Source: Planctomycetaceae bacterium (GTDB lineage Bacteria > Planctomycetota > Planctomycetia > Pirellulales > UBA1268). From it: a DNA stretch of 49,784 nt. The notes beneath the pieces are model-generated. The model did not search any database, was not told the origin of the DNA, and saw only the letters and a program-made list of their open reading frames with translations. Positions 15,715 to 49,784 of the stretch are shown piece after piece; the first letter of the stretch is position 1, and every line of letters begins with the position of its first letter. The DNA is taken from positions 1-49,784 of the forward strand of contig JBJSXB010000257.1 of assembly GCA_046086245.1 (NCBI GenBank), given 5' to 3'. A program made the translations under genes and the position numbers.

Positions 15715-15728
15715 CGGTGGCAACTCCC

Positions 15729-18636: not shown

Positions 18637-18804
18637 GCGACACCTCCGTATGGGACGGGCAAAAAAGGAAACGCGATGAATGAAACGCCCCGGGGGTGCT
18701 AGTGTTGTGCGGACTTTTCGCCGAACCGACGGGAAGTCCGAGCGACCACCAAAACCCCCGATTTCGAGGCCAGATTACGGGGGTACTACGGGGGTGTCAA
18801 CCAA

Positions 18805-24505: not shown

Positions 24506-24535
24506 CGCACCGCGCCGCCGCCCGCAGGACCTCGC

Positions 24536-25474: not shown

Positions 25475-25499
25475 TCCGCTCCGCCGGCCCGCCACCGCC

Positions 25500-27836: not shown

Positions 27837-27875
27837 GCGGTGAGGCCGGTGGGAACGCGAGCCGGGGAGGTGGGC

Positions 27876-30800: not shown

Positions 30801-31439
30801 GAAGTGGAACAGATCCTCGGCCGGCCGATCGCCGCCGCGCCGTCCTCCGCCGACGGCGCGGGCGCGACGCCCGTGCCGGCCGACGACTCCCTCGGTGCCC
30901 GCCTCGAAGCCGCTGGCGCCGCGGCGACCGCGGCGGGCCGGTCCGCCGAGGGCTTCGCCGGCCAGTTGTCGGGACGCGTGCCAGTCGGCGCGGTCAGCGC
31001 GGAAGCCGCGGCAGGGAAGGCATCGCCGATCGCCGAGCTGCTCGATAGCCCACCCGTGCAGGAGGCCTTGCAGATGGCCGACCGGGCGCGGCGCCTCCAA
31101 TTGCGCGCGGCACACAAGCGCGGTGCCGACTCGGGCCAGCGGCCGGGAGAAGGGGCCGCTTCCGACGAGGCGGGCGACGGCCAGTCGGGACAGGGACGCG
31201 CGCGGGGCGCGGGGGAGGAGGCGGGCGACCCATCGAGCGAGGGTGGTGGCCGCGACGGCGAGCGGCGGCTCGATCAGGCTCTCCGGGGCCTCGACGCGCG
31301 CCGCCGTGCCGCGATCGAACGCCTCCCTCCGCGGGTTCGTGATCCGCTTCTCGAGGGCATGCGCGAGCGCGGCCCGGAAGCGTATCGCGACGTGATCGAG
31401 ACCTACTTTCGCCGCCTCGGCAAGGACGTCGCACCATGA
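27876..31439 (+). CDS. Large membrane protein with Ala/Arg/Glu-rich coiled-coil C-terminal half (DUF4175-like by architecture)
   Basis: ATG preceded by GGAGG at 6-nt spacing. Two N-terminal TM helices and a long beta-rich middle region. The C-terminal part has an Ala/Arg/Glu/Asp-rich helical composition and ends ...YRDVIETYFRRLGKDV. The family assignment is from memory of the architecture only. Confidence 0.6.
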   Translation: MVSGTARQTAGDGPATALTRVVERARRRIVATTIVAGTLLVAALAVATVVGAVIVDLVVPLRVPWRIAAAVGWCLAVALAVLAFLVVPARRRPTLDAVALRIERVLGGMHNRLLTVLDLERDGGRRARTRPDLLVRLLEQTQERLRGFRVGRVVSRRAPIRAAAFAGAGVAAVVALSAVFGDRFSTTLERLWHPTADIPPATVVQFAVPGDIEVLVDEPLSIDVAVTRGACAAAEIVLEDSGGGRLRYPLRPVAGGFVGRLDGLDRDARYRVEGGGTWSRTHAIRLLTRPAIEQCTRVVRLPSYMRIDEPLPVIGDPPRIEAPEGATVEFTAAVRPDPVGGALTILERSIETEQVDTFDERVWFEDDLPRDAVFAQPWRWTTAHAAGGVRGFVCDDDRTASLRTRLEPLVLPKDELAGKGLMVMVRTDPTAPPCRIVVAFDAGAAKAEVAWGEDGGSATDDPPVAGPLPAPGAWARLTVPLESLPALAGKHVAAATFRVEGGRAVLDRPGWFARGTRTVERVVDRPRGRVEAEPVAAAAGDAAGRWRAVLPVERRSLVTLSFTDGRDHPSLPVPPVEIVPTVDRPPALVITSPADMLPLELPDDVIVEGEAFDDWGIDSLAVRVGPDAEHLSPPRPLADVALADRPPDTRVAFAATVPLTTLGLEPGRGAAWKLVVRDTKGQVVESSLHRVTVVPPPDAQLARSQVPAIEQARRLAEQMAAAGTRDAAGLDVQRERLLEAVGRDTVEALEAVAEATRRGAEESADPQATAAARERLAAAQRLADEAATRLDAPQREALDRLDRFLDARAAEADRIAEALARAAEQARASSLVPERLKERLDTLAADARRSRRALEKSPDLSGDAAALERIANTPEPNAIAVSAERLAAVAADEGREIDAVGAARRLDRLAGDLARRAAALGTRARRDDASARVDRPTDASPSPVPTPGDQAAPPDGADRPPSDAAAPPDAIRQLREVEQILGRPIAAAPSSADGAGATPVPADDSLGARLEAAGAAATAAGRSAEGFAGQLSGRVPVGAVSAEAAAGKASPIAELLDSPPVQEALQMADRARRLQLRAAHKRGADSGQRPGEGAASDEAGDGQSGQGRARGAGEEAGDPSSEGGGRDGERRLDQALRGLDARRRAAIERLPPRVRDPLLEGMRERGPEAYRDVIETYFRRLGKDVAP

Positions 31440-34949: not shown

Positions 34950-36434
34950 TCAGGCGACGCGCTCGAGGATCTCGTCGAGCAGCCGGGCCAGCGCGCTGCC
35001 ACGGAACGGCGTTTCCATCACTTTGCGCCGTCCATCGACCGTCGCCCGCTCGACGAGCTCGGCTTGGCGCTGGCCGACGAGCAGCACGGCGGGCACCTGG
35101 GAGAAGAACGGGTCTTTGGAAAGCGTGTTGAACGCCTCGACCGCGGGGGCACCGAGCGACTGCGCGCAGAGGACCAAGCCGTCGGCGGGCACCGGTGTCG
35201 TGGAGAAGCGTGCCAGTGCCCGCTGCGGATTCTCGGTGAGCAGGACCTTGTAACCGAGCTTCGTGAAGAACTCCCGCAGTGTCTGCTGCGAGCGCCCCGG
35301 TCGCTCGACGAGCATGATCGATCCGCGCATCACCGGCTTGGGCCGTTCCGGCGCCGCGGCGCCGGAACGGGCGGCGGGCGCGGCGGCATGGGCGACGGCG
35401 GCTCCCGCCTCACCGCTGTATTTTTCCAGCAACTGGTCGAGCGCCCGCTTGGCGTCGGTCACCGTCTGCCAGCGTTCCAGCGGATCGAGATGCATCATCC
35501 GGCCGACGCAATCGACCACGTCGCGGGGCAGCGCCTGATTCCGTGTCGTGAGGGGCACCACCGACGTGAACCGCCGCGGATCGCCGCGGACGTTCCGGTC
35601 GCGCGACTCGACGAGTGCCGGTGCGCCACCGAGACAGAGGTAGGCCAGCGTGCCGAGGAAATAGACGTCGCTGCGGATACCGTCGTCTTTCATCCCCGAG
35701 AGCTTCTCGAGGGTCGCGTAGTCGAGCGTCCGCGGATGCTCGACCTTGCCGAGTGATTTGTCCCCCGTCTCGGCATCGATGCCGGCGAGCCCGAAGTCGA
35801 CCAGCTTGGCCTTCCCCAGCGAGGAGACGAGGACGTTGGAAGCCTTGAGATCGCGATGGGTCACCCCGCGGCGGTGGGCGTACTCCAGGCCGGCGGCCAT
35901 CTGCACGACGAGATCGAGCCCCTTCACCAGGTCGAGTGCCCCGCGGATCCGCACCAATTCGCGCAGCGTCTGCCCTTCGACGAACTCCATCGTGATGTAG
36001 CTCGACGTGTGCTCGAGACCGACGTCTTCGATGGCGACGATGTTCGGATGACGGAGCAACCGCCCCATCTCCCCCTCGCGCCGGAACGACTTGCACTTGT
36101 CCGCGTCGGCGTTGTATCGCGCCCGCAGGACCTTGACGGCGAGGATGCCCCCGTCGACGGTGCTGACCGCCCGGTAGACGCGTGCGAAGGCACCCGCGCC
36201 GACCTGGTAGAGCACCTTGGCGGTGCCGTAGTGGTACCCGCGGCGATCACCGCGCAGCAGGCGGTCGAGCTGATAGTTGGTCAGCAGTTCGCGGCGCAGC
36301 AACAAGGCGCCCAACTGGTCGATGGGCACGTTTTGCCCGCCCAGCTCCGACCAGGCCTCGTTGAGCGTGGCCGCCGGCACCAGGTCGAGTTCCTGGGCGA
36401 GGTGGGCGAGCTCCTCGGCGGTGGTTGGCTGCAT
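34950..36434 (-). CDS. Hanks-type Ser/Thr protein kinase with C-terminal receiver-like domain
   Basis: Inner ATG (MQPTTAEEL...). Kinase motifs: GAGAFARVY, AVKVL, HRDLKASNVLV, DFGLAG. The C-terminal ~125 aa align by eye to a CheY-like receiver. Confidence 0.9.
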   Translation of the reverse strand: MQPTTAEELAHLAQELDLVPAATLNEAWSELGGQNVPIDQLGALLLRRELLTNYQLDRLLRGDRRGYHYGTAKVLYQVGAGAFARVYRAVSTVDGGILAVKVLRARYNADADKCKSFRREGEMGRLLRHPNIVAIEDVGLEHTSSYITMEFVEGQTLRELVRIRGALDLVKGLDLVVQMAAGLEYAHRRGVTHRDLKASNVLVSSLGKAKLVDFGLAGIDAETGDKSLGKVEHPRTLDYATLEKLSGMKDDGIRSDVYFLGTLAYLCLGGAPALVESRDRNVRGDPRRFTSVVPLTTRNQALPRDVVDCVGRMMHLDPLERWQTVTDAKRALDQLLEKYSGEAGAAVAHAAAPAARSGAAAPERPKPVMRGSIMLVERPGRSQQTLREFFTKLGYKVLLTENPQRALARFSTTPVPADGLVLCAQSLGAPAVEAFNTLSKDPFFSQVPAVLLVGQRQAELVERATVDGRRKVMETPFRGSALARLLDEILERVA

Positions 36435-36639
36435 GGCGTGACCCTCGTCGAAGTTTACCCTACGCCCCGTGCCAGGCCGGGCCGCCCGCCGCCGCCGCCG
36501 CCGCTGCCGCGGTCGGCCACAACTCCCGCGAGAGTCGGCCGTTAGCACGCCGCCGGAGAGCCCACGGGAAGCCGATCTCGCCGGATGACGCCGACTTGGT
36601 CTGGAGCCGGGTCGGCGAAGACTGGTAGGAGTCCGGCGC

Positions 36640-39600
36640 ATGGCCAACTTGCCCGGACACCCTCCGCTCGCTTTCTTCCGCCGCGGTGGGTCACCGCCGG
36701 CCGGCGGCGCCCCGCTGGCCTCCCGTGCCTGCCTGGGCGTGGCACTCGCGGTCGCCAGCGCGACGGCGGGATGGTCGGCGACGATCGACGAGCCATTCGA
36801 GACTCCGCAGCCATGCTGGCGGCTCGCCGAGGCGGACGGCGGGCCACGGCTCGTGGAGCAGCAGCGCAGCACCGTCGCCCCCCACCGCGGGCGCGCCTGC
36901 GAGCGGCTCGTGATCGACACCGGCGCCGGCTCCGTGTTGCGGCTGGCGCTGGAGTTGCCGGCGGCGCCGGCGATCGACGAGTGGCGCGCGAGCCTATGGG
37001 TGCGTGCCAACCGTCCCGACATCCGTCTCGCCGCGCGCGTCGAACTGCCGTCGTTTCCGCGGGCGGCTGACGGTCGCGCCGTGGCGGTCCTCGTCCCCGG
37101 CACGATCTCGACCGACATCGACCGCTGGGAGTCGCTGTCGGTCGGCGGGCTGCCGGGCGGGCTCCGGCGCCAGCTGCTGGCGCTGCGGGCGGAGCACGGT
37201 CCGGCCGGCGATCTCGCCGGCGCGGTGGTGACGCACGTCGTGCTCGAACTCTACTCGGGCCCGGGCCGCTACGAGGTGGCGCTCGACGACCTGCTCGTCG
37301 AGGGGGCCGTCGCGATCGACACCCATGCCGCCCCGTCCGCCGACCACGCACCCGCGCGGTTCGCCGCAACCCCGCCGGCCCGCCCGTCGCCAGCCGACGC
37401 CGAGGCACCGGTGCGTCTGGCGAGCCACGCCGATCCGGGCGCCCCGCCCCCCGGCGAGCCGCCGGCGGGCTTGGTGCGCGGGGTGCTCGAAGTCGCCGGG
37501 AGACCGTTCTTCCCCCGCGCCATCGACCACTCCGGGGAACCGTTGGCGTTTCTCGCCGGCCTCGGGTTCAACTGCGTCCGCATCCCCGTACCCGCGTCGG
37601 GCGATCTGCTCGCCGAGGCGCGCGGCAGCGGTATGTGGGTGATCTGCCCCCCGCCGGTGCTGCCCGACGTCGACATTCGCGACCCGGCCGCGCTTCCCGC
37701 CTTCTCCCCCGCCTGGGACCGCGTGATCGCTTGGGATCTCGGCACCGGCTTGGCGGAGGAGGACGTCGACGGGTTGGCGGATCGCGCCCGGCGCGTGCGC
37801 ACCTGCGACCAACGCCCCGGCCGGCCGCTGTTCGCCGCGGCCGACTCCGGACTGCGCAGCGTCTCGCGGCACGTCGACATGCTCGTGGGGCGCCGCTCCG
37901 TGCTGGGCACGAGCCTCGAACTCGACGACTATCTCGCCTGGCTCCGCGAACGCGGACGACTGACGCGGCCGGGAACGCCGATCCTCGCCACCCTCGCCAC
38001 CGAGGTCGATCCCCGTGCCGCCCGCCAGGCCGGCGCCCTGGCGGGCGTCGGCGGCCGCGGGTTGGCGGTCGATCCGGAGAGCCTGTCGCTGGCGGGCTAC
38101 GCGGCGGTCTCGGCGGGCACACGGGGCATCCTCTGCAGCTCGTCGCGACGCCTCGACGGCGACGACCCGCAGAGCCGCGCCCGCGCCGCCGCCTGCCGGA
38201 TGCTCAACTTGCGGCTCGAGGTGCTCGACGCCTGGGCGGCCGCCGGCCGGTTCTCGGCCGCCGCCCAATCGTCCGACCCGGAGATTCGCGCGATGGTGCT
38301 GGAGGCCTCGCGGGCCCGCATGGTGGCGGTGTGGAGGTCGGTTCAGGGTTCGCAGATCGTCGCCCGTCGCTACCGCGGCGACATCCCCGACAACGCGCCG
38401 CTCACGTTGCTGCTCCCCGGCGTGCCGGAGGCACACCGCTGCTGGGAGGTGGGGGCGGGCGGCCTCAAGCCGCTCCGGCAGCGGCGCGTGGCGGGTGGCG
38501 TGTCGGTGGTGCTCGACGGCTTCCTCACCTCGACGGTGATCCTCGTCAGTGGCGATCCGACAGTCGCGGCGCAGGCGCAGGAGCAGGTCCGGCTCCGCCA
38601 GACGGCGTGGCTCGATGCCAGCCGCGCCGAGGCCGCGCTCGCCCTCGCCCACGCCGGTGACCTGCTCGCGCGCCTCCCGCCGACCGCGCTGGGCAACCTG
38701 CCAACGGGCGACATGCTCCGCCACGCAAGCGGCCGCGCGGCGGAGGCCGAAGCGCTCGTCGGCGCCGATCCGGCGGCGGCGATCACCGGGTTCCAGACCG
38801 CCGCCGCCGTCGCCGGCCAGGTGGAACGCCTCGCCTGGGAGCGCGGGATCGTCGCCGCCGGATCGATGGTCTCCGATCCGCTCGCGACGAGCGACGCCAC
38901 CCTCGCCGAACACTGGCGCTTCGTCTCCGCTCTGGCCGGTGCCGGCCCGGGAGCGGAACTCCTTCCCGGCGGATCGATGGACCGCGTGGACGACCTGGCG
39001 ACGGCGGGGTGGCGGCACTTCGTGCTCGCCCAGAAGACGATCCGCAGCGGCGTGGAGATTTCCCGAACGCAGCCGGCCGCCGGCAGCGGATGCCTGTTGC
39101 TCCGCGCCGAGGCGGTCGACGCGGCGCTCGCCCCGGCCGTGGTGGAGACCCCACCGGTGTGGGTGACGACGCCGCCCGTGGCCGCACCCAGCGGGAAGCT
39201 GTTGCAGATCGAAGCCCGCGTGTGGGTGCCCAAGCCGGTCCGCGGCAGCGTCGACGGGCTGCTCGTCTTCGATTCCTTCGGCGGACCGGCACTGGCGGAG
39301 CGGGTGGCCGCCTCGCCCGGTTGGCGACGGCTCATCCTCCACCGGATTGCGCCCGAGGACGGCCTCGGCGAGCCGCTCGTGGTCACGTTCGCGCTCACCG
39401 GGCTGGGCGAGGCGCGGATCGACGAGGTGTCGGTCCGCGTGCTCGAACGGGGACTGGGCGGGACCGGCACCACGACGATCGCCGTCGACGGCGCGACCAC
39501 CCCGTTTCCGTCACCCGAGGCACTCGTCGGCGACTCCGGCCCGGCGCGGCTCCCTCCCCCGGCGGCGGCCGACGACCGCGGCGGACCGCGTTGGCCGGGC

Positions 39601-39732
39601 ATGGATCTCGCCTGGCCGCGCATCCTCCCCTTCGGTCAAAGTGGCAACGAGCCGCCGACCGGTTACGGCGGCGGACGTGTCGATCCGTTCAAACGCGTGG
39701 AGTCGGCCGCCGATCAGCCGGTGGCGCCCTGA
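36640..39732 (+). CDS. Large (1030 aa) exported protein, function unknown (possible glycoside-hydrolase-like TIM-barrel segment)
   Basis: AGGAG upstream of the ATG and an N-terminal signal-like segment (ACLGVALAVASATAG). The internal segment FLAGLGFNCVRIPVP resembles the GFN.vRip block of clan GH-A enzymes, but the match is weak. The antisense ORF 36994..39342 is an Arg/Gly-rich shadow frame. Confidence 0.6.
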   Translation: MANLPGHPPLAFFRRGGSPPAGGAPLASRACLGVALAVASATAGWSATIDEPFETPQPCWRLAEADGGPRLVEQQRSTVAPHRGRACERLVIDTGAGSVLRLALELPAAPAIDEWRASLWVRANRPDIRLAARVELPSFPRAADGRAVAVLVPGTISTDIDRWESLSVGGLPGGLRRQLLALRAEHGPAGDLAGAVVTHVVLELYSGPGRYEVALDDLLVEGAVAIDTHAAPSADHAPARFAATPPARPSPADAEAPVRLASHADPGAPPPGEPPAGLVRGVLEVAGRPFFPRAIDHSGEPLAFLAGLGFNCVRIPVPASGDLLAEARGSGMWVICPPPVLPDVDIRDPAALPAFSPAWDRVIAWDLGTGLAEEDVDGLADRARRVRTCDQRPGRPLFAAADSGLRSVSRHVDMLVGRRSVLGTSLELDDYLAWLRERGRLTRPGTPILATLATEVDPRAARQAGALAGVGGRGLAVDPESLSLAGYAAVSAGTRGILCSSSRRLDGDDPQSRARAAACRMLNLRLEVLDAWAAAGRFSAAAQSSDPEIRAMVLEASRARMVAVWRSVQGSQIVARRYRGDIPDNAPLTLLLPGVPEAHRCWEVGAGGLKPLRQRRVAGGVSVVLDGFLTSTVILVSGDPTVAAQAQEQVRLRQTAWLDASRAEAALALAHAGDLLARLPPTALGNLPTGDMLRHASGRAAEAEALVGADPAAAITGFQTAAAVAGQVERLAWERGIVAAGSMVSDPLATSDATLAEHWRFVSALAGAGPGAELLPGGSMDRVDDLATAGWRHFVLAQKTIRSGVEISRTQPAAGSGCLLLRAEAVDAALAPAVVETPPVWVTTPPVAAPSGKLLQIEARVWVPKPVRGSVDGLLVFDSFGGPALAERVAASPGWRRLILHRIAPEDGLGEPLVVTFALTGLGEARIDEVSVRVLERGLGGTGTTTIAVDGATTPFPSPEALVGDSGPARLPPPAAADDRGGPRWPGMDLAWPRILPFGQSGNEPPTGYGGGRVDPFKRVESAADQPVAP

Positions 39733-40484: not shown

Positions 40485-41146
40485 CGCTCCCTCCGGCCAT
40501 GGCGGCGCTCGGCGACCAGGGCGACGAGCCTGTCGACGACGGCCTCCCTCGAGAGGTGATCGGTGTCGAGTTCGACGGCATCCGCCGGCATGCGCAGCGC
40601 TCCGACGGCCCGCGACCGGTCGTCGACATCGCGGCGGTCCTGCTCGGCCAACACCGCGGCGAGGGTGATTCCCGGGCGGCGCTCGCGCTCCTCGGCGAAC
40701 CGCCGGGCCGCACGGACCTCGCGGCTGGCGGTGAGGTAAACCTTCAACTCGGCTTGGGGAAACACCACCGTTCCCTGGTCGCGCCCCTCGGTGACGAGAT
40801 CCACGTCGTGGGCGATACGTTGCTGCCTCGCGACGAGCGCGGCGCGCACGGCCGGCCAGTCGGCGACCCGTTTGATCGCCTCGTTGACGGCGTGGCTGCG
40901 GAGTTCCTCCCCCGGGGCGGCGTCATCGATGAGGACCACCCCCGGCCGAAACGTGAGGGCGTCGGACGCCGCCAGGGCGGCCAGCGCCGCGCCATCGGCG
41001 AGATCGAGCCCGCGCCGCAGCGCCGCCAGCGTCACCGCCCGATACATCGCCCCGGTGTTGAGATGGAGCCAGCCGAGCCGCACGGCGAGACCCTCGGCGG
41101 CCTTGCTCTTGCCCGAGCCCGCAGGCCCGTCGAGCGTGACGATCAT
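40481..41146 (-). CDS. cmk: Cytidylate kinase
   Basis: Inner ATG with GGAGG 7 nt upstream. MIVTLDGPAGSGKSKAAEGLAVRLGWLHLNTGAMYRAVT is the canonical Cmk N-terminus (iaiDGPagsGKsT...l.....ldtGamYRa). The stop overlaps the plsC start (ATGA). Confidence 0.9.
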   Translation of the reverse strand: MIVTLDGPAGSGKSKAAEGLAVRLGWLHLNTGAMYRAVTLAALRRGLDLADGAALAALAASDALTFRPGVVLIDDAAPGEELRSHAVNEAIKRVADWPAVRAALVARQQRIAHDVDLVTEGRDQGTVVFPQAELKVYLTASREVRAARRFAEERERRPGITLAAVLAEQDRRDVDDRSRAVGALRMPADAVELDTDHLSREAVVDRLVALVAERRHGRRER

Positions 41147-43704
41147 GCCGACACCTCCGCCGCGGCGTCGGCGAACCGCAGTTCGAGGAGCGTCCACCCG
41201 TAGCGGCGCATGTGGAACGTCGTCCGCGGCCCCGCAACCACCACCGCCGGTCCGTCGACGGTCCGACCGAGGGCGTCGCACACTCGGGCGCTGGCCACCG
41301 GCAGGGGCCACTCGATCGCGACGTCACCGGCGCGGCCGGCCACCTCGAGAACACCGACCGTGATCGTGCCGGGCGCCGTGCCCTCCTGCGGAACCCAGCC
41401 GGTCAGCCGGACGGTGTCGGGAACCCCGGGCGCCGGCGCGGGCAGCGATCCGTCCGGCGACGCGGTGAAGGCGAGGCCCAGGTCCCACGGCCGGCGGATG
41501 CCGATGCCGACCGCGAGTCGAGCGCTGGCCGACCCGCTCCCGGCTGCACCGGGGGCGCCGCCCGGCGGGGCACCGTCGGCACCGGGGTCGGGAACCCCGT
41601 CGGGAAGGAGGCAATCGATCATGTGCGGACTGGAGCGCACGTGCCACGGCAGGCCGCCGGTGAGGATCGTCGTGCCCGACCCGGAAGCCGCGGCGCCGGC
41701 GACGATCTCGAGAAAATGCGGGGCCGACAGCAGCGTGCGCTCGCTGACGACCGACTGCGTCGCCTGACCGCGACGGACGTCGACGTCGTCGTTCTCATTC
41801 CAGGCGAACCGGCAGCAGGGATAGGCCTCGAGCCACGGGGCGCCCTCGCGCCGGAAGCCATCGACGGCCACCTCGATCCGCACCAGCGGCAGGCGCGCGT
41901 CGATGGCCACGCGTTGCCGGAAGCGCCCGACGTCGCGATCGCCGCGCAGCAATTTCCCGCGGCTCTCCAGCACGCCGTCGGCATCGCGCTCGATCGCGTC
42001 GGCGACCATGCGGGTGTAGTCGGCCCGTTCGAGGGCGTCCTCCCAAGGTGCTCCGGCCGCCGGTGCCGGCCGCGTGGTGCGGATCGCGAGCGCCTGGGAA
42101 AGACGGTTGCCGCGTTCGCCGCTCGCCCGGACCGAGAGGATCCCGCCCGTCTGGGGATGGACGCGCACCCGCAGGCCGCGCGCCTCGAGGACGAGGCGGT
42201 CGGAGGCCGCGCGGCGACGCCATCGATCGAACATGCCGCGGCGCGCGGCCGGCACGCGCGGTCCGGCGACGGGCGGCGCCTCCTCCGCGGGAGGCCCGAG
42301 CAGGCCGACGGCCGCACGGGCGGCGAGCAGGTCGCGAGCCTCGTCGAACGCCTCGGCGCGGCGCGTGGCGACCGGGTCGCCCGAGTCCGCCGGCCCCGGC
42401 GGGCTGGGGGGATAGGCATCCGGATCGAGGCCCACCGCGCTGCCGGCACCGGTGGTGCGTCGGAAGAACTCCTCCGGGCCGACGAACCGCCCGAGCACAC
42501 CGGTCCAGGTGCTGATCCGTCGCAGATCATCGAACCAGCGGCTGGCCGTGCCGGCATGATGGGCGAAGGTGAGCACCGCCGTGTGATCGTGATCCATCGC
42601 GTCGCCGAGCCGATCCGCGAGACGGAGGATCGACGATGCGTGGCGGGCGTCGAGCGGTTTCTTCGCCACCGCCTCGATGCTGCCCCCCCCTCCTTCCCAG
42701 CGGATCCGGCTCGCGCCCGGTTCCGGCGACGGCGAACCGTCGAACTGGTTCCACACCGCTCCCTCGTAGCCCAGCTGCTGGAGGATGTGCGGCAACAGCG
42801 GGCTCGAGCCACCGGAAAAACGCGCGAAGCAGCGCGGCGTCGCCCCGAGGTGATCGCGCCACGCGCGCCGCCCCCGCACGAACGATGCCAGGATCCGCTC
42901 GGGGGTCCACGCGTCGAGCGGTGCATCGTCGTCGCGCCCTCCCGCGGGCGAAACCCGTCCGTCGGCGATCGCCTGCCGCAGCCTGGCGGCCAGCGCCGCG
43001 TCGGTGGCGGCCAACCGTTCGACGAGCGCACCGGTGGCGATGGCGACCCACGGCGTCGGTGCGGCGAGTTCGCCGGCAAGCCGACCGCCGAGCGTGGTCT
43101 CGGCGAGCAGCACGAGGTCGAGGAGCCACACGTCGACCGGGTAGTAGTGGCCGCGCGCGGCCTCGAGCGTCGCATACGCCTCACCGAGGCGCTCGCGTGC
43201 GACGGCTTCGTCGCCACCGACGGCCGCGCGGGCGGCGGCGACGACGGCGGCCTCCAGATCGGCTCCCCCGCGCGCCGCGCCGGAGCGCATCCGCCGCGCG
43301 AGGAGCTCGGCGAGCAGCCAGGCCAATCCGAGGGCGTGGAAGTCAGCGGCCAGCGGGGGGGCGATCGGCGGGAGACCGCGCGCCGCGCGCGCCTCGGCGA
43401 CGATCGCCTCGCGGTCGCGGTGGCCCCGGACCCATGCCGATCCCGCCGGGCACGTCGCCGCGCGGAACGCTTCGACGCGTTCGTCGCACGAGGGGGGGAC
43501 GATCGCCAGAAACGGCGCGTCGTCGTGCGGCGGCACCTCGGCGCTCGCCCAGCCGGGCATCCGGCCGACGGCGTCGATGAGCGCCGGATCCCAGGCGGCG
43601 GTCCACGCCGCGAGCAGCGCGTCGGCCTCCGCCTCGTCGAGCCACGTGGGGAAGTCTTCCAACGAGTGGCAGGGGAGAAAGACGGCGATCCGCTCGATGC
43701 CCAT
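41143..43704 (-). CDS. Conserved-looking 853-aa protein, function unknown (possibly GH38/alpha-mannosidase-like architecture)
   Basis: Inner ATG (MGIERIAVFL...) of the 1656-aa track ORF 41143..46113. Upstream of this ATG, that ORF is antisense to the PilM-like gene. The C-terminal pattern LVLEARGLRVRVHPQTGGILSV... resembles the beta-sandwich domain of GH38 enzymes, but no catalytic motif was recognised. The stop overlaps the cmk start. Confidence 0.6.
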   Translation of the reverse strand: MGIERIAVFLPCHSLEDFPTWLDEAEADALLAAWTAAWDPALIDAVGRMPGWASAEVPPHDDAPFLAIVPPSCDERVEAFRAATCPAGSAWVRGHRDREAIVAEARAARGLPPIAPPLAADFHALGLAWLLAELLARRMRSGAARGGADLEAAVVAAARAAVGGDEAVARERLGEAYATLEAARGHYYPVDVWLLDLVLLAETTLGGRLAGELAAPTPWVAIATGALVERLAATDAALAARLRQAIADGRVSPAGGRDDDAPLDAWTPERILASFVRGRRAWRDHLGATPRCFARFSGGSSPLLPHILQQLGYEGAVWNQFDGSPSPEPGASRIRWEGGGGSIEAVAKKPLDARHASSILRLADRLGDAMDHDHTAVLTFAHHAGTASRWFDDLRRISTWTGVLGRFVGPEEFFRRTTGAGSAVGLDPDAYPPSPPGPADSGDPVATRRAEAFDEARDLLAARAAVGLLGPPAEEAPPVAGPRVPAARRGMFDRWRRRAASDRLVLEARGLRVRVHPQTGGILSVRASGERGNRLSQALAIRTTRPAPAAGAPWEDALERADYTRMVADAIERDADGVLESRGKLLRGDRDVGRFRQRVAIDARLPLVRIEVAVDGFRREGAPWLEAYPCCRFAWNENDDVDVRRGQATQSVVSERTLLSAPHFLEIVAGAAASGSGTTILTGGLPWHVRSSPHMIDCLLPDGVPDPGADGAPPGGAPGAAGSGSASARLAVGIGIRRPWDLGLAFTASPDGSLPAPAPGVPDTVRLTGWVPQEGTAPGTITVGVLEVAGRAGDVAIEWPLPVASARVCDALGRTVDGPAVVVAGPRTTFHMRRYGWTLLELRFADAAAEVSA

Positions 43705-43914
43705 AGGGCCCGGATTGTACCGATGCACGGGTCGGTTTTCAGGCGCGCGTGACGACGGAGCGGCGTGCGTCACCGCCCGTGTGCGGCGGGTTTGACATCG
43801 CGTCAGCGGCGTTCGTAAAGTGCATTCGGTGGGGGCGTCGATGTCCTTCCCCGGGGTCCCGCCTCCCGCTCCTCTCGGCAGGCCCTTCACGACGCCCGCA
43901 CGGAACACGCCGTC

Positions 43915-46146
43915 ATGGCCACCAGCCCCTACGTCTGGGGAATCGACATCGGGAAGTGCGGGCTGAAGGCGCTGCGCTGCCGGCCGGCGGACGATCCGCG
44001 CATGCTCGTCGCGGACGCGTTCGACTACATCGAATACCCGATGATCCTCACCCAGCCGGAGGCCGATCCGGTCGAGTTGGTGCGCGCCGCGCTGCAGGAC
44101 TTCGTCGGTCGCAACAAACTGCGGGGCGACAAGGTGGCGGTTTCCGTGCCCGGGCAGTCGGGCCTCGCCAAGTTCATCAAGCTTCCCCCGATCGAAGCGA
44201 AGAAGATCCCCGACATCGTCCGCTACGAGGCGCGCCAGCAGATCCCCTTCCCGCTCGACCAGGTGATCTGGGACTGGCAGCGGCTCGCCGGCGGCATCGA
44301 GGAGAGCGGGTTCGTGATCGACGCCGAGGTGGCACTGTTCGCGATGAAGCGCGAACAGGTGGCCAAGGCGCTGGCACCGCTCCAAGCCGCCGACATCGAA
44401 GTCGACATCCTTCAATTGTCGCCGATGGCGCTGGCGAACATGGTGATGTTCGACCAACTGCCCGACCCGGCCACCATCGATCCCGACAACCCGCCGCAGT
44501 CGGTCGTGCTGGTGTCGATGGGGGTCGATTCGACCGATCTGGTCGTCACCAACGGGCTGCGCATCTGGCAGCGCAGCATGCCGATCGGCGGCAGCAATTT
44601 CACCAAGGCGCTCGTCCAAGGCATGAAACTGACGTTCGCCAAAGCGGAGCAGCTGAAGCGCAACGCCGTCCGCGCGGAAGATCCGAAGGCCGTCTTCAAC
44701 GCGATGCGGCCGGTGTTCAACGAGTTCGCCTCGGAACTGCAGCGCTCCCTGAATTACTTCACGGGGGCCGACCGCTCGGCGCGGATCGGCAAGGTCTTGC
44801 TGCTGGGCAACGCCGCGCGGCTCCGTGGCCTCGCCGATTTCGTCGGGAAGCAGTTGCAACTCGACGTTCAGCGGCTCGACACGTTCCGCGGCTTGGAGGG
44901 GGCGGCGGTGACGGGAGCGGCGGCCTTCAAGGAACACCGCCTGGCCTTCGGCACGGCCTACGGCCTGGCGCTGCAGGGGGCGGGCCGGGGCGTCATCAAC
45001 ACCAACCTGCTCCCTGGCGAGATCGTCCGCGAACGCCTCATCGCATCGAAGAAGCCGTGGGCGGTGGCGGCGATGGTCGGAGTTCTCGCCGCCTCGGCGT
45101 TGAGCTTCATCGGGAACTACACGGCGTGGACGACCTGGTCGCCCAACCTGTACGACGCGGCGTTCAAGGCGGCCGACGGGGTCAAGTCGGAGTCGCAGGC
45201 GGCGCAGACGAGCTTCGCCGACATGCAGAAAAAGCAGGAGGAGGCGGTCACCCGGCAACAGGACTTGGTGAAGCTCGAGGATCGCCGCTTCCAGGTGATC
45301 GACATGATGCGGTCGATCGAGTCGCTCCTCCCGCGCGATGAACCGGGCAAGGCGCCTGAGAAACTCGCCGACCGCCGCGAACTCCACATCGACCAACTCG
45401 ATTGCCAGTACTTCACCGACCTCGACACCTGGTTCACGGGCGTCAAGGACCAGTGGGCCGCCACGCATCCCTCCGAGGAAGCCGAGGAGTTGGACGAGAG
45501 CGGTGCCGCGGTGACCGCGGCGCCCACCGGGGGGGGCGAGGCCGAGGGAAGCGGCGCGGTGGCCGAGGTGGCGGGACCGAAGGGCCCCGGCTGGGTCATC
45601 CAGATGGTGGGCTACCACTACCACAACGAGGACCATCACAAGCCCGATCAGGGAGCCCAGTTTCTCCGCTCGACGATCGTCAAGGGGCTTCTCGGCAAGT
45701 CGGGGGACGTGACGGTGACCGCGGGTCCGCTCGCGGGCCAGAAGGTGCCGATCAAGGATCTGGGCATCGGCTTCCCGGTGATCGTCTCGTCGTCGCCGCT
45801 GCGGGTGATGCCCAACCCGCTCGCCCCGGCGACGATGCCCGGCATGATGCCCGGCATGGGACCGCCGGGGGCGGCTCCCGGCGGCCTGCCCTATCCCGGC
45901 GGCATTCCCGGTCCACCGGGGACGATTGCGTCCGGCGGCGGCTTTCCGGGAAGTGGACGTCCCCCCGGGGAATCCACCGGCAAAGATGGTGACGAAGGCA
46001 AGACGGGGGAGGAAGCGACGCCCGCGCCTCCGGTCGATCAGATGATCCGTCGCTACGACTTCGTCTTGCAGTTCACGTGGCAGCCGACCGTGCCCGGCGT
46101 GTCGAAGGACCAACCGTCCGAAGCGGAGGTGGCCGCAGGCCAGTGA
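43915..46146 (+). CDS. PilM-like actin-fold ATPase fused to a PilN-like transmembrane segment, with long C-terminal extension
   Basis: WGIDIGKCGLKAL (phosphate-1-like). AKFIKLPPIEAKKIPDIVRYEARQQIPFPLDQVIWDW (the PilM r.i.lP.m...el...v..ea...iPf....v.D block). LLGNAARLRGLADFV. Then INTNLLPGEI plus the TM helix PWAVAAMVGVLAASALSFIG (PilN INLLP hallmark). About 330 further residues include PATMPGMMPGMGPPGAAPGGLPYPGGIPGPPG. Confidence 0.8.
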   Translation: MATSPYVWGIDIGKCGLKALRCRPADDPRMLVADAFDYIEYPMILTQPEADPVELVRAALQDFVGRNKLRGDKVAVSVPGQSGLAKFIKLPPIEAKKIPDIVRYEARQQIPFPLDQVIWDWQRLAGGIEESGFVIDAEVALFAMKREQVAKALAPLQAADIEVDILQLSPMALANMVMFDQLPDPATIDPDNPPQSVVLVSMGVDSTDLVVTNGLRIWQRSMPIGGSNFTKALVQGMKLTFAKAEQLKRNAVRAEDPKAVFNAMRPVFNEFASELQRSLNYFTGADRSARIGKVLLLGNAARLRGLADFVGKQLQLDVQRLDTFRGLEGAAVTGAAAFKEHRLAFGTAYGLALQGAGRGVINTNLLPGEIVRERLIASKKPWAVAAMVGVLAASALSFIGNYTAWTTWSPNLYDAAFKAADGVKSESQAAQTSFADMQKKQEEAVTRQQDLVKLEDRRFQVIDMMRSIESLLPRDEPGKAPEKLADRRELHIDQLDCQYFTDLDTWFTGVKDQWAATHPSEEAEELDESGAAVTAAPTGGGEAEGSGAVAEVAGPKGPGWVIQMVGYHYHNEDHHKPDQGAQFLRSTIVKGLLGKSGDVTVTAGPLAGQKVPIKDLGIGFPVIVSSSPLRVMPNPLAPATMPGMMPGMGPPGAAPGGLPYPGGIPGPPGTIASGGGFPGSGRPPGESTGKDGDEGKTGEEATPAPPVDQMIRRYDFVLQFTWQPTVPGVSKDQPSEAEVAAGQ

Positions 46147-46294
46147 GACGCCGCGGAGCGCGCGGAGCCCGCGACGGGCGGCTGTAACGCGACCCGCTCG
46201 ACGGCGTCATCGGAAAAAGACGAACGGGGAGCGCGGCGGGGGCGGCGGCCGTTGTCATACGGCCAACAGGGGTGGGCACGAGGAGGAGGATGCG

Positions 46295-48235
46295 ATGGTC
46301 CAGGTTCCCGATTCGATCCGCCCGGTGGCCGACTTCCTCGCGAAATACCATTTTTGGATGCTCGTGCCGTTGGTGCCGCTGATCCTCCTGCCGCTCCTGC
46401 TGCTCACCAACGGCCGACTCTCCGCCGAAATGACCGCGTCGAAGGGGCAGATCGAGGGCCGTCTGTCAGCGCTCAAGAGCGTCGAGTCGGTGCAGCCCCA
46501 TCCCAACGATCGCTGGGCCGGCGACATGACGCGCCGCGTGACCCGCGTGCAGAAGGAGACGCTCGCCGAGTGGGAGGCGTTCTGGGCGAGCCAGGCGCCC
46601 CTTCGGGCATGGCCCGAGGAACTCGGTCCCGACTTCGTGCAACGGGCCCAGTCGCTCAAAGCGGGCGGCCGGCTGCCGCGTCCTTTGCTCGAGCGCTATC
46701 AAAACGGCATCCGCGCGATCGTCCGCAAGCTGCCCGGGCGGATGGGGGCCGACGAGATGATGCCCGACCCGGCGGGGGGTGGTGGCGGCGCAATGACCGG
46801 GGCGATGGCGATGGGGGGAGCCGCCTACTCGCCCGATGCGTCGGGCGCGTATTCACCCGACAACCCCGGCGGAATGATGGCCGGGGGCATCATGGCGGGC
46901 GGTCCCGGCATCGTGCCGCCAGGCCGCGGCCGCAAGGCGGCCACGGTGCAATGGAGCGCCGCCGACCAACAACTCTTGTTCAATTCGTTCTTTTGGGAGG
47001 AGCCGCCGAGCACGAAGAAAGTCGTGCTCGCGCAGGAAGAGCTCAACGTCTACGGGTTCCTCTGCGACCTCATCGGGCGGATCAACAAGGGTTCTGGGGG
47101 CTCCTACGACGCGCCGATCTGGATGGTGGAACGACTGGCGGTCGGCTACCCGGCCGCCGACGGCGCTCCGGAGACCACCACGTCCGGCCGCCTCCAATCC
47201 CCTCGCGGCCGCGACGGAGGGATGGGGATGGGCATGGGTGGGAGCATGGGGTCGGGGATGACGATCCCGGGCATGAGCGACATGGGAGGTTCCGGCGGCG
47301 AAGCCGCAGGAGCAGGTGGGGGGGCGGTGAAGCCGAGCCATCCGCGGTTCCAGGGTTCCGGCGGATTCGGCGGCATGGGGGGCATGTACGGCGGTTCGAG
47401 CGCCGGTCTGTCCGACATGATGGGGAGCGGCGAGGCGGCGACACCCGTCAACACCGACGACTCGCTCGAGGAGTGGATCTACGTCGACCCCGACGGCAAG
47501 CCGCTGACCGGTGAGGAAGTCCGCTCGGCCGCCGGTCGGATCGCGAACCTGATGCCGTTCGTCCTCCGCGGGGTTGCCGACCAGCGCAAACTCGACGCCA
47601 TTCTCGTCGCCTTCGCGACCGCGGAGGTGCCGGTCACCGTCCGGGAAATCCGCGTGAACCCCTCGGCCGGCGGTGGCGCGGGTGGCATGTTCGGCGGCGG
47701 AAACGCCGCCTATGCACCCGATTCGGGCGGCGCGGGAATGGGCGGTGGCATGGCGATGGGTATGGGGATGGGAGTGCCGGGCGGCGGTAGCGGCAACAAT
47801 CGCCGCGCGCACGACGTGACGTTCGAGATCGCCGGCACCATCGCCCTGGCCCGACGTCCCGATCCGAAAGCACTCGGTATCGAAGACAAGGCTGCCGACG
47901 AACCCGCCGAACCGGCGGCCGAACCCGCTCCTCCGGAACCGTCCTCCGATCAACCCGATCCGGGCGCGGCGGCGGTTGCACCGACGGATGCGGCACCGGC
48001 TGCCGCGGCGCCGGGTGAGGGGGCGCCGGGTGACGCCGTCCCGGCGAATCCACCGCCCGTTGATGCCGCGCCGGCCGAACCGAATCCGGGTGCCCCCCCC
48101 GCCGCCCGCCGGTTGCCACCCGTCACGCCGGGTGCGGCCACTCCCCGCTTCGCCATGGTCCCGACCCGTCCGTGGAACTTCGTCGCGTCCGGCATGTCGT
48201 CCGAGTCGCCGCTTGGTGGGAGGATCGCATCATGA
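46295..48235 (+). CDS. Single-pass membrane protein with Gly/Met-rich low-complexity segments, function unknown
   Basis: AGGAGGAGG upstream of the ATG. N-terminal TM helix YHFWMLVPLVPLILLPLLLL followed by a coiled-coil-like segment. Three G/M-rich tracts (for example GGMGMGMGGSMGSGMTIPGMSDMGGSGG and GGAGMGGGMAMGMGMGVPGGG) and a Pro/Ala-rich C-terminus. Confidence 0.65.
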   Translation: MVQVPDSIRPVADFLAKYHFWMLVPLVPLILLPLLLLTNGRLSAEMTASKGQIEGRLSALKSVESVQPHPNDRWAGDMTRRVTRVQKETLAEWEAFWASQAPLRAWPEELGPDFVQRAQSLKAGGRLPRPLLERYQNGIRAIVRKLPGRMGADEMMPDPAGGGGGAMTGAMAMGGAAYSPDASGAYSPDNPGGMMAGGIMAGGPGIVPPGRGRKAATVQWSAADQQLLFNSFFWEEPPSTKKVVLAQEELNVYGFLCDLIGRINKGSGGSYDAPIWMVERLAVGYPAADGAPETTTSGRLQSPRGRDGGMGMGMGGSMGSGMTIPGMSDMGGSGGEAAGAGGGAVKPSHPRFQGSGGFGGMGGMYGGSSAGLSDMMGSGEAATPVNTDDSLEEWIYVDPDGKPLTGEEVRSAAGRIANLMPFVLRGVADQRKLDAILVAFATAEVPVTVREIRVNPSAGGGAGGMFGGGNAAYAPDSGGAGMGGGMAMGMGMGVPGGGSGNNRRAHDVTFEIAGTIALARRPDPKALGIEDKAADEPAEPAAEPAPPEPSSDQPDPGAAAVAPTDAAPAAAAPGEGAPGDAVPANPPPVDAAPAEPNPGAPPAARRLPPVTPGAATPRFAMVPTRPWNFVASGMSSESPLGGRIAS

Positions 48236-49784
48236 AGAAGCCGAAAATCAACCTCAGCAAGCAGGGCATCGCCACCTTCTTTCTCAACCATGGGGAGAAG
48301 TTGGTCGTCGGCCTGTTCGCGATGCTTTCGCTCGGCCTCATGTGGGGAGGCGTCGACGCCCTGCGCACCAAGCCCGTCACGCGGAACCTGCTTCCACAGG
48401 TGATCACCGAACAGGCGACGAGGTCCCGCGAGCACATCGGCCGGGAGAAGAATCCGCCCCCCGACACGAGCAAGCGCACCCCCTTGACGACGCTCATGGA
48501 GCCGTGGCGGCATCCCCAGATCGCGGAGCGATCGCCGGGCGCGGTCTTCAACCGCCCGATCAACGAGGAACGGTCGAAGCGTTCCAAGCCCGACGTCTTT
48601 CCGATCGAACAGCTGCAGGCAGTCTCCGGGCAGGCGGTGTTGACGCTGAAGCCCGACGCAGCGGCGGCACTGGCCGCGGCGGCGGCCGAACCGAAGGACG
48701 ACGGACAGCGCGGGAACAAGCGCGGTGGCCGCGGGCGCGACAACCAGGCGGGCCGCGGTGGCAATCAACCGTCGGATCCGGCCGCCGACGGGATCGGTGG
48801 CGGAACGATCGCCGGGCGCGGCGGCAGCGCGCCGCCACCGGGCGTCCCACCGATGCAGAGCGGGGTGCCGGGTCTGCCCGGCTTCGGGATGGGCGACGGC
48901 ACCGGTGTGACTGCCAACGGCCAACTCGTCCCGTACTGCCTCGTCACCGGCTTGATCCCATGGTTGAAGCAGTCGGAGGAATTCCAGGCGCGGTTCATGA
49001 GCAGTTCGCTGCCCAATCCCCAGGGCGACTCCCCGGTGTGGGCCGACTACCAGGTGGAACGTGCCGAAGTCACCGCCGACGGCGTGGGACCGTTCCGCAA
49101 GATCGATCTCCGTGCCGCCTGGCAGCGGGCCAACAAACTGTACGCCAATCTGCAGCCGGACAGCCTCCCCGCCGAGTTCATCCTCGCCCAGGAGATGGCT
49201 CCCGATCCCAATCCGGCGCGGCGGGTGTTCGGCTACCTGACTCCGTTGCCGCAACTGGCGGGTGACGTGTGGGGGCTCGAATCGATCCACCCCTGGTTCA
49301 TCGATCTGATGCTCGACCGGAAGGAAAAGGAACGCGAGTTTCTCAAGAAGCAGGAAGCGGCGGCGCGCGAGGGCAACACCCCCTTGCTGTCCGGCGGCGG
49401 CGGCATGATGCCCGGTGTTCCCGGGATGCCTGGCGGATACCAGGGCGGCATCGGAGGCATCAGCGGCCCGCCTGGTGGAGGCTCGACGATCGGCCTGTCG
49501 GGTGGCGCCTACTCCGACCCCTATGGGGGTGCGATGACCGGATCGACCGACGGGTCCTATCCCGGTGGCGGTGGCTATCCGGGGGGCGGTGGCTACCCCG
49601 GTGGTGGCGGCTATCCCGGCGGCGGCGCGGGACCATCGTCTTCCCCGCCATCGGGCGGCAACAAGATTGGGCCGCGCAACACGAGCGTCGGCTCGATGCC
49701 GTCCAGGGGAAGCGGTGGCGGAGGCATGGGCGCGGGCGGCGCGATCAACGAGGGAGCGGCCACCGGCGGCGGTGCGGGAATGGG
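48232..49784 (+). CDS. Single-pass membrane protein with Gly/Pro/Met/Tyr-rich low-complexity C-terminal region (partial, continues beyond window)
   Basis: Not in the ORF track because no stop is reached. I translated it by hand from the ATG at 48232 (MKKPKINLSKQGIATFFLNHGEKLVVGLFAMLSLGLMWGG...) and found no stop through 49782. The start overlaps the preceding stop (ATGA at 48232-48235). One N-terminal TM helix. The track ORFs 47976..49265 (+) and 47950..49290 (-) are Arg-rich shadow frames. Confidence 0.6.
   Translation, partial: MKKPKINLSKQGIATFFLNHGEKLVVGLFAMLSLGLMWGGVDALRTKPVTRNLLPQVITEQATRSREHIGREKNPPPDTSKRTPLTTLMEPWRHPQIAERSPGAVFNRPINEERSKRSKPDVFPIEQLQAVSGQAVLTLKPDAAAALAAAAAEPKDDGQRGNKRGGRGRDNQAGRGGNQPSDPAADGIGGGTIAGRGGSAPPPGVPPMQSGVPGLPGFGMGDGTGVTANGQLVPYCLVTGLIPWLKQSEEFQARFMSSSLPNPQGDSPVWADYQVERAEVTADGVGPFRKIDLRAAWQRANKLYANLQPDSLPAEFILAQEMAPDPNPARRVFGYLTPLPQLAGDVWGLESIHPWFIDLMLDRKEKEREFLKKQEAAAREGNTPLLSGGGGMMPGVPGMPGGYQGGIGGISGPPGGGSTIGLSGGAYSDPYGGAMTGSTDGSYPGGGGYPGGGGYPGGGGYPGGGAGPSSSPPSGGNKIGPRNTSVGSMPSRGSGGGGMGAGGAINEGAATGGGAGM
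49558..49626 (+). repeat. In-frame 18-nt coding repeat, (YPGGGG) x4
   Basis: Tyr codons read at 49558, 49576, 49594 and 49612, each followed by a Pro codon and Gly codons. The synonymous codons differ between copies. Confidence 0.85.

Follow-up and report, generated by a model that had tools for sequence, protein, structure and literature searches.

We analyzed the three-gene operon that closes a 49,784-nucleotide stretch of planctomycete DNA (hereafter the window: contig JBJSXB010000257.1 of assembly GCA_046086245.1, from a Planctomycetaceae bacterium of the order Pirellulales). Its genes lie on the same strand and encode proteins of 743, 646 and more than 517 amino acids, here called proteins 1, 2 and 3, the last of which is still open where the window ends. 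The operon is a divergent pilM(N)-O-'P'(-Q) module of the type found in the Planctomycetes-Verrucomicrobia-Chlamydiae (PVC) superphylum, and neither a division machine nor a system without pilus ancestry; its closest known relative is the Amuc_1101-1100-1099-1098 cluster of Akkermansia. It carries periplasmic Gly/Met/Pro-rich insertions and has no adjacent secretin gene. We consider it likely that the three proteins belong to a type IV pilus-like machine of the PVC kind that crosses the envelope and is linked to a secretin, and that they form its alignment scaffold in the inner membrane and the periplasm.

In public annotation, protein 1 is named 'PilM' and the other proteins of the operon are hypothetical; window proteins 1 and 2 have no exact sequence on record. 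The initial annotation of the window, made from the DNA letters and a list of open reading frames (ORFs), had given the sizes and coordinates of the three ORFs (Table 1) and had described the last two as coupled. Both points agreed with the ORF list and with the sequence, in which an ATGA at 48232-48235 is the overlap of genes 2 and 3. From this overlap, protein 3 is read as translationally coupled to protein 2.

Protein 1 combines PilM with a PilN-type segment

Residues 9-354 of protein 1 match the Pfam model PilM_2 (PF11104) with an E-value of 5.4e-36 and 124.7 bits (cutoff 27), and the NCBIfam pilM model (TIGR01175) is passed as well (151.2 bits, cutoff 133). A sequence search of the PDB returned PilM of Myxococcus as the best match (3jc8, E 2e-25), together with 2ych and 5eox. 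The top NCBIfam model for protein 1 is Amuc_1101_fam (NF045709), aligned over model positions 44-462 of 608 with 205.5 bits; the orthologue at the related locus L085 scores 201.8 bits against the same model.

The actin fold shared by PilM and FtsA leaves room for another reading, hinted at in the initial annotation, in which the operon encodes a PilM/FtsA-like cytoskeletal or division machine replacing the missing FtsZ/FtsA. Protein 1 does show a weak match to an FtsA model of Pfam (PF14450, 30.4 bits), its orthologues are 60-96% identical over their full length, and the highly conserved operon stands beside the housekeeping genes cmk and plsC. However, both FtsA models stay below threshold (the cutoff of PF14450 is 31.8; TIGR01174 gives 26.4 bits against 175.85) and far behind PilM, and several close relatives retain the operon but not its synteny with cmk and plsC. 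The PilN-type peptide of protein 1, its PilO/Amuc_1100-like partner and the secretin of its relatives (all described below) point to a pilus or secretion scaffold instead. We therefore regard a division machine as highly improbable, and the hint was not borne out.

In PilN, a short N-terminal peptide is the part that partners with PilM. Protein 1 contains this feature in cis, as NTNLLP at residues 362-367, fused to its own PilM domain. The stretch GRGVINTNLLP aligns residue for residue with SSGMARINLLP of the PilN peptide in 5EOU, an engineered chimera of P. aeruginosa PilM and PilN(1-12), and N364, L365 and P367 are invariant across 42 protein 1 orthologues. The only 19-residue Kyte-Doolittle windows above 1.6 start at residues 381-384, which places a single transmembrane (TM) helix shortly after the motif. 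Taken alone, the segment made of the NLLP motif, the helix and a juxtamembrane coil matches Amuc_1101_fam at profile positions 354-462 (E 2e-5), so the architecture of a PilM joined to a TM segment is common to Akkermansia.

Beyond the helix lies a conserved periplasmic domain of about 270 amino acids, marked by the blocks GPGWVIQ..GHHYHNE and RYDFxLQFxWQP. The PilN model PF05137 matched neither full-length protein 1 (E <= 1) nor its C-terminal part after excision of the low-complexity tract (E <= 10). Of the PilN architecture, protein 1 has the motif and the single helix, with a periplasmic part that has no PDB relative by sequence. No cytoplasmic or periplasmic model of GspL, the corresponding protein of type II secretion systems (T2SS), was found at E <= 1 in Pfam or NCBIfam. 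Judged by its sequence, protein 1 is a natural fusion in which a genuine PilM is followed by an NLLP motif of PilN type, a single TM helix and the conserved periplasmic domain. The initial annotation had noticed the PilM-type blocks, the INLLP-type motif and the single helix, and its proposal of a natural PilM-PilN fusion held up on the profile thresholds, on the 5EOU alignment and on the single hydrophobic segment.

Protein 2 has a predicted Amuc_1100/PilO fold

Protein 2 is a single-pass protein with one N-terminal hydrophobic helix (approximately residues 18-40). Its AlphaFold2 model has a predicted TM-score (pTM) of 0.61, and 192 residues have a predicted local distance difference test (pLDDT) value of at least 90. 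The model consists of a long TM helix continued by a coiled coil, a helical bundle, an alpha/beta core built from residues 218-288, 388-454 and 507-519, and disordered Gly/Met-rich loops and tail; in the tail, pLDDT is below 50 at residues 533-538 and 556-646 and between 50 and 60 at residues 539-555.

When this model was compared with the PDB using Foldseek, the top 10 matches were all crystal structures of Akkermansia Amuc_1100 (6lad, 6kny, 6laf), with probabilities of 0.80-0.99 and target TM-scores of 0.51-0.58. P. aeruginosa PilO came directly after them in the list and Myxococcus PilO at rank 13. The PilO structures 5uvr, 3jc8_O and 2rjz gave weak matches (E 0.7-2, probability 0.25-0.72); the topology of the AlphaFold2 model is compatible with PilO. 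Independently of the structure comparison, and in agreement with it, Amuc_1100_fam (NF038287) was, among the 18,950 NCBIfam models, the top match of the compact, tract-free orthologue at L085 (E 2e-4, 20.8 bits). Window protein 2 itself has no Amuc_1100_fam match and no Pfam or NCBIfam assignment, and a profile search of the PDB with the protein 2 alignment gave no meaningful match.

Protein 2 is thus predicted to have the Amuc_1100/PilO fold. The absence of a recognizable PilO, reported in the initial annotation, is true of the sequence models only, because the predicted structure of protein 2 is Amuc_1100/PilO-like. The family is large: at E <= 1e-3 it comprises 2,410 clusters at 50% identity, counted as matches to the planctomycete protein 2 profile and not to Amuc_1100 itself, and 782 clusters at E <= 1e-30.

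Protein 3 occupies the PilP/GspC position

Protein 3 also has a single N-terminal hydrophobic helix (approximately residues 23-42) and is single-pass; its full-length orthologues are 750-814 amino acids long. The AlphaFold2 model of the 804-amino-acid orthologue P0242 was mostly unstructured, with 539 of the 804 residues at pLDDT below 50. Its folded parts are the TM helix (residues 10-46), a small alpha/beta unit and a beta-rich C-terminal domain (residues 570-680). Pairwise profile comparison with hhalign found no relationship among protein 2, protein 3 and the C-terminal region of protein 1. A match to GltJ (E 0.003), which came up in the Pfam and NCBIfam searches with proteins 2, 3 and P4 and with tract-excised versions, was discounted as driven by low complexity. 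For both partners of protein 1, the single-pass topology and the lack of a Pfam or NCBIfam family are as first described.

Distant relatives of the operon end in a secretin

A genome scan found relatives of protein 1 in at least 548 species-representative genomes, essentially all of them metagenome-assembled genomes (MAGs) of Planctomycetia or Pirellulales. Across 85 related loci (L004-L088), the order protein 1-protein 2-protein 3 is kept wherever enough downstream DNA is available, which is what a survey of the synteny of the trio, suggested earlier, was to look at. The window ends inside protein 3, and the gene order beyond that point is taken from relatives.

At L002, a relative with 76% identity, the operon encodes a PilM-like protein of 761 amino acids, protein 2 of 645 and protein 3 of 814 (overlapping protein 2 by 4 nt), followed by a fourth protein, P4, of 519 amino acids and then by convergent genes for a thiamine pyrophosphate (TPP) enzyme and mfd. 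The same arrangement, protein 3 and then a P4 without secretin match and then convergent genes, is seen in relatives with 76-81% identity. P4 (L002, 16923-18482) has a signal peptide and an Ala-rich helical sequence. Neither P4 nor proteins 2 and 3 of L002 have a Pfam or NCBIfam assignment, and hhalign found no relationship between P4 and the secretin described next. P4 occurs in 47 of the 80 loci fetched, all in the clade of the window; it is specific to this clade and holds the place that the secretin has in distant relatives.

The operon of a distant protein 2 relative, which shares upstream neighbors, encodes a PilM-like protein of 705 amino acids, protein 2 of 415 and protein 3 of 561, and then a 1316-amino-acid protein with a Secretin domain (PF00263, E 6e-21). 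PilQ is the best NCBIfam match of this protein (2e-25), followed by Amuc_1098_fam (4e-21) and GspD (7e-21). This secretin stands directly after protein 3 at L077, L080, L082, L083, L084, L085 and L087; L079 is the only distant locus with downstream DNA that lacks it. Since distant operons end in a secretin, the layout of the wider family is pilM(N)-O-'P'-Q. Extending the locus downstream through its relatives, as had been proposed, thus uncovered a secretin in distant operons and P4 in its stead in the clade of the window.

Several side observations concern these loci. At L085, the secretin (13546-17496) has an N-terminal extension of about 770 amino acids ahead of a weak STN-like match and the Secretin domain. 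A DUF423 gene follows the secretin at L085, L087 and L080. At L080, in a 7.8-Mb long-read MAG, the coding sequence of the secretin homologue is broken up into five or more successive ORFs that lie in different frames (15422-19843), reflecting either frameshift sequencing errors or a pseudogene. Some operon-bearing MAGs (L009, L011, L018, L034, L035, L039, L061, L068 and others) are labelled 'Candidatus Kuenenia stuttgartiensis' or 'Chitinophagaceae'. They carry a 52-65% identical protein 1 (79%, in a partial match, for L067, which has the Kuenenia label), with the same gene order where the contig reaches, and the labels are probably wrong.

Comparison with Akkermansia, type IVa pili and type II secretion

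The Amuc_1098-1102 system of Akkermansia muciniphila has been described as an abundant, pili-like system of the envelope (PMC5332112), and the MUL2 genes are needed for the accumulation of mucin (PMC12418764, PMC13174399). MUL2 comprises the pilin-like Amuc_1102, the PilM-like Amuc_1101, Amuc_1100, Amuc_1099 and the secretin Amuc_1098. Akkermansia and the host of our operon both belong to the PVC superphylum, and the two clusters have their genes in the same order: a PilM-like protein with a TM extension, a protein of Amuc_1100/PilO fold, a third protein of a small family and a secretin (the last one in distant planctomycetes). They differ in that the C-terminal domain of protein 1 does not align with positions 463-608 of the Amuc_1101 profile, the operon does not start with a gene for an Amuc_1102-like pilin, no Amuc_1099 match was obtained for protein 3, and the clade of the window has an unrelated 519-amino-acid protein in place of the secretin. 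Proteins 2 and 3 are also two to three times longer because of the Gly/Met/Pro-rich disordered insertions.

With the type IVa pilus of Pseudomonas, Myxococcus and Thermus, the operon shares a PilM above thresholds, the PilN-type NLLP motif and helix, the PilO-like build predicted for protein 2 (an alpha/beta core behind a TM helix and a coiled coil), a component encoded between the 'O' gene and the secretin, and, in relatives, a PilQ-like secretin. It could accordingly be an ordinary type IVa pilMNOPQ locus that Pfam no longer recognizes because its sequences have drifted too far, with nothing structurally or functionally distinct; a prepilin-type gene in the window (17524-18590) would fit such a locus. 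In contrast to an ordinary locus, PilM and PilN form one polypeptide, there is no Pfam match to PilN, PilO or PilP, and protein 1 has the extra conserved periplasmic domain without known relative. A helical bundle is added in protein 2, which is nearer to Amuc_1100 than it is to PilO. Protein 3 is not a small lipoprotein like PilP but a large bitopic protein of 750-814 amino acids with an N-terminal TM helix and no PilP match. The secretin is a giant of 1316 amino acids with its long N-terminal extension and is not in the operon in the clade of the window, and Gly/Met/Pro-rich disorder makes up 25-38% of proteins 2 and 3. We consider a merely drifted pilMNOPQ locus improbable. The PilO and PilQ homology that such a locus should show downstream was in good part found in relatives, through the secretin, and not in this lineage.

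In T2SS, GspL is a single chain made up of an actin-like cytoplasmic domain, a TM helix and a periplasmic domain, GspM is bitopic, and GspC has an N-terminal anchor, a linker and a beta domain. Proteins 1, 2 and 3 follow this architecture, respectively, and do so better than they follow PilM/N/O/P, which makes a role in secretion a live rival: a T2SS-like assembly platform that exports proteins and forms no surface fibre. The secretin of the relatives matches GspD nearly as well as PilQ, and pseudopilin-like DUF1559 proteins abound in planctomycete genomes, the window encoding one of them. On the other side, the matches of protein 1 are to PilM models and to the PilN peptide, with none to a GspL model, GspM and GspC are likewise without a sequence match, the secretin is slightly better as PilQ than as GspD, and no gene for GspE, GspF or GspG is adjacent. 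The nearest characterized relatives, Akkermansia Amuc_1098-1102, are moreover described as pilus-like (PMC5332112, PMC13174399). We rate a T2SS-like platform as about as improbable as an ordinary pilus locus.

The Gly/Met/Pro-rich tracts are coordinated and dispensable

We measured the tracts as residues in windows with at least 50% Gly, Met and Pro. By this measure protein 2 has 241 such residues and protein 3 has 192, far above the other 31 predicted genes of the window, none of which exceeds 70; the tracts pointed out in the initial annotation, including the (YPGGGG)x4 repeat, which corresponds to 3.8 copies of an 18-bp tandem repeat (Table 1), are therefore real. With an orthologue counted as tract-bearing from 40 tract residues upwards, tracts are present in 48 of 50 sampled orthologues of protein 2 (median 161 tract residues), in 32 of 32 of protein 3 (median 245) and in 16 of 42 of protein 1 (median 28). 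Gly makes up 28-35% of their residues, Pro 15% and Met 10-13%; charge is low, aromatic and bulky hydrophobic residues are few, and the main motifs are GMGMG, GGMGG, MMPPG and GGPGG. In proteins 2 and 3, the pLDDT values of AlphaFold2 predict disorder for the tracts, whose position downstream of the TM helices places them in the periplasm, as first supposed.

Aligned with compact orthologues, the tracts are insertions at four fixed loop sites plus the C-terminal tail. They are absent at L085 and L080 and nearly absent at L078 and L083, with the operon otherwise intact; the idea that orthologues would lack the tracts thus applies to these loci and fails for nearly all other sampled orthologues of proteins 2 and 3. 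At the distant locus L079, tracts have expanded independently, with different sequences. In 59 genomes, tract length in protein 2 correlates with that in protein 3 (Pearson r 0.86; Spearman rho 0.69, or 0.75 after removing GC), as do the Met and Tyr fractions of the tracts (rho 0.75 and 0.64), in statistics that ignore phylogeny. At L082 (3277-6909), the tracts of both proteins are Gly/Glu/Arg/Tyr-rich and not Gly/Met/Pro-rich, tract composition drifting in step between two proteins of one genome.

The tracts may still have no specific function, being tolerated, slippage-driven expansions in surface loops whose conservation reflects phylogenetic inertia. Their length and sequence are highly variable, short tandem repeats are present in the DNA, they are optional in protein 1 and nearly missing from the four loci just named, and the co-variation carries no phylogenetic correction. 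Arguing otherwise, they turn up repeatedly at the same four loop sites, and at L079 their expansion was independent; length, Met and Tyr co-vary between two proteins of one operon; and within the window they are confined to this operon. Met makes up 10-13% of the tracts in a genome of 70% GC although its codon is AT-rich, and the tracts are kept in a genome of 46% GC, so they are not an artefact of GC composition. Tracts without function are a possibility to be taken seriously, though one we lean against. The tracts are thus under selection or, at the least, coordinated, and yet dispensable.

Elastomeric proteins such as abductin (GGFGGMGGGX), resilin and flagelliform silk (GPGGX) are rich in Gly. 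The motifs GMGMG, GGMGG, MMPPG and YPGGGG of our tracts resemble the repeats of such elastomers, which are rich in Gly/Met or in Gly/Pro/Tyr. Unlike elastomers, the tracts are loops and linkers in bacterial periplasmic scaffold proteins and are poorly repetitive at the DNA level, and a mechanical role for them is only hypothetical.

A proposed scaffold and the evidence that weighs against it

In the scaffold that we propose, the cytoplasmic PilM domain of protein 1 would couple the complex to an ATPase and a platform protein encoded elsewhere, and the periplasmic part of protein 1 would pair with protein 2, as PilN does with PilO. Protein 3, anchored by its N-terminal helix, would reach the outer-membrane component with its beta-rich C-terminal module, in the role of PilP or GspC. 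The tracts would most likely give the scaffold flexible, extensible tethers or spacers with which to bridge the planctomycete periplasm, which is wide and of variable width. In the clade of the window, the secretin gene has left the operon, and the secreted helical P4 is encoded after protein 3.

For the function of the machine, our leading guess, by analogy with MUL2 of Akkermansia, is attachment to macromolecules or their uptake. The players in planctomycete macromolecule uptake were called 'still unknown' in a review of November 2025 (PMC12673574), and Boedeker et al. tied uptake by microscopy to fibres from crateriform structures (PMC5394234). A bolder version of the analogy makes the operon, as a homologue of MUL2, the base of the fibre-bearing crateriform 'press-stud' connections between outer and cytoplasmic membrane, proposed to capture and import whole polysaccharides, with the tracts as elastomer-like tethers or a cohesive mesh spanning the enlarged, deformable periplasm. 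We hold this version to be unlikely. In the literature, we came upon no paper that connects Planctomycetes with this cluster or with Amuc_1100-type clusters, and none that connects crateriform structures with type IV machinery.

A number of results weigh against the scaffold reading. For no gene of the window did Pfam or NCBIfam give a signature of PilN, PilO, PilP, a secretin, an ATPase or PilC, and a prepilin peptidase is likewise missing from the 49.8 kb; the original remark that secretin, ATPase, platform protein and pilin are not adjacent in this lineage stands. Neither the window nor the 10 kb around the operon at any locus of its clade contains a secretin homologue, so that the link to an outer-membrane channel is drawn here from relatives. 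All family scores fall far short of the equivalog cutoffs of the Akkermansia models, with 205 against 650 bits for Amuc_1101, 21 against 180 for Amuc_1100 (the L085 orthologue) and 75 against 750 for Amuc_1098. The Foldseek E-values of protein 2 for Amuc_1100 are weak (0.045-0.25), and the PilO model PF04350 matches neither the full-length nor the tract-excised protein.

For protein 3, the best Foldseek E-value was 0.34, to generic Ig/FN3 folds that we regard as noise, and neither the protein nor its tract-excised modules matched Pfam, NCBIfam or the PDB, including PilP (PF04351) and the GspC HR domain; having no structural relative, it is assigned a putative PilP/GspC role from gene position and topology. 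The C-terminal region of protein 1 has no relative in Pfam, NCBIfam or the PDB, profile search of the PDB included, and P4 likewise has none in a PDB profile search, leaving both folds without a match. Finally, the operons that lack the tracts indicate that these are dispensable and not essential to the core machine, and the tract correlations count for less as they ignore phylogeny.

Taken together, the profile and structure searches that had been suggested returned PilM for protein 1 and, by prediction, an Amuc_1100/PilO-like fold for protein 2, and no match for protein 3. The suggestion that the operon is something other than a pilus alignment complex is contradicted by the predicted fold of protein 2, by the Amuc_1101 and Amuc_1100 family matches and by the secretin of the relatives.

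Genomic context of the operon

The coordinates of the operon features are given in Table 1. The promoter-like hexamers 5' of protein 1 are weak evidence, as planctomycete promoters are poorly known.

Table 1. Positions of the operon genes and their features in the window.
Feature	Position	Strand	Basis and remarks
Promoter-like hexamers TTGACA-18-TAAAGT	43792-43821	+	Divergent intergenic region 5' of protein 1; consensus scan, 10/12 matches
Protein 1 ORF, 743 aa	43915-46146	+	ORF call
PilM actin-like domain of protein 1, cytoplasmic, residues 9-354	43939-44976	+	PilM_2; PDB PilM matches
NLLP motif of protein 1, residues 364-367	45004-45015	+	Equivalent of the PilM-binding N-terminal peptide of PilN; 5EOU alignment
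TM helix of protein 1, approximately residues 381-403	45055-45123	+	Kyte-Doolittle
Periplasmic C-terminal region of protein 1, residues 474-743	45334-46143	+	Conserved in 27/27 diverse loci aligned
Variable Pro/Gly/Met tract splitting the periplasmic blocks of protein 1, residues 619-696	45769-46002	+	In 16/42 orthologues
Protein 2 ORF, 646 aa	46295-48235	+	ORF call
Protein 2 tract 1 (Gly/Met/Pro/Ala), residues 163-211	46781-46927	+	pLDDT < 50; insertion relative to compact orthologues
Protein 2 tract 2 (Gly/Met/Ser), residues 291-380	47165-47434	+	pLDDT < 50 except a short conserved KPSHPRF island; insertion relative to compact orthologues
Protein 2 tract 3 (Gly/Met/Ala), residues 461-498	47675-47788	+	pLDDT < 50; insertion relative to compact orthologues
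Protein 2 Pro/Ala-rich C-terminal tail, residues 533-646	47891-48232	+	Mostly pLDDT < 50; absent in L085 and L080
Protein 3, first 517 codons of about 805 aa, no stop	48232-49784	+	ORF call; ATGA overlap with protein 2
18-bp tandem repeat, 3.8 copies, (YPGGGG)n	49557-49625	+	Second low-complexity tract of protein 3; Tandem Repeats Finder score 96

The window ends (49784) within the tract-coding sequence of protein 3, and the 96%-identical contig L001 ends (14185) within that of protein 2. Contig ends inside low-complexity coding sequence suggest that the repetitive Gly-rich coding breaks the assembly.

About 26 kb from the operon, a gene at 17524-18590 on the minus strand encodes a DUF1559 (PF07596) protein whose N-terminus (KRG/FTLVELLVVIAIIG) is a textbook example of the prepilin type; the gene is pilin- or pseudopilin-like and one for a potential substrate. 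Upstream of protein 1, and divergent from it, an 853-amino-acid protein is encoded at 41143-43704 (-), with a faint match to the GH38 N-terminal domain (E 0.002). We considered the divergent unit of this gene, cmk and plsC as a part of the system and rejected it; the unit is syntenic in 57 of 65 loci and missing from close relatives that keep the operon.

Further away, a 1030-amino-acid protein without family assignment (36640-39732, +) is encoded beside a Ser/Thr protein kinase (34950-36500, -); upstream of the operon in related loci, the former is found in 34 of 65 and the kinase in 25 of 65. A cluster at 23330-33832 (+) encodes MoxR (AAA_3), BatA, a 1199-amino-acid protein without Pfam match and a VWA protein, and has the likeness of a Bat/aerotolerance-type operon. 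A sigma-54-dependent response regulator (7727-9181, +; Response_reg, Sigma54_activat, HTH_8) has no evident link to the operon.

Significance

The operon is a concrete and widely conserved candidate gene set for the uptake of macromolecules by planctomycetes, the link being one of analogy only. If it should prove to be merely a drifted pilus scaffold, the gain would be a better annotation of three large families of 'hypothetical' proteins. The fusion of PilM and PilN, engineered by structural biologists, occurs in nature.

Homology ties the operon to Amuc_1098-1102/MUL2 of Akkermansia, whose Amuc_1100 is much studied for its effects on the host, and Amuc_1100 would belong to a large, PVC-wide family of PilO-like proteins. 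The orthologues of the operon also form a natural series with 0 to approximately 300 Gly/Met/Pro-rich disordered residues at fixed loop sites, which makes them a ready system for asking what periplasmic linkers of this sort do.

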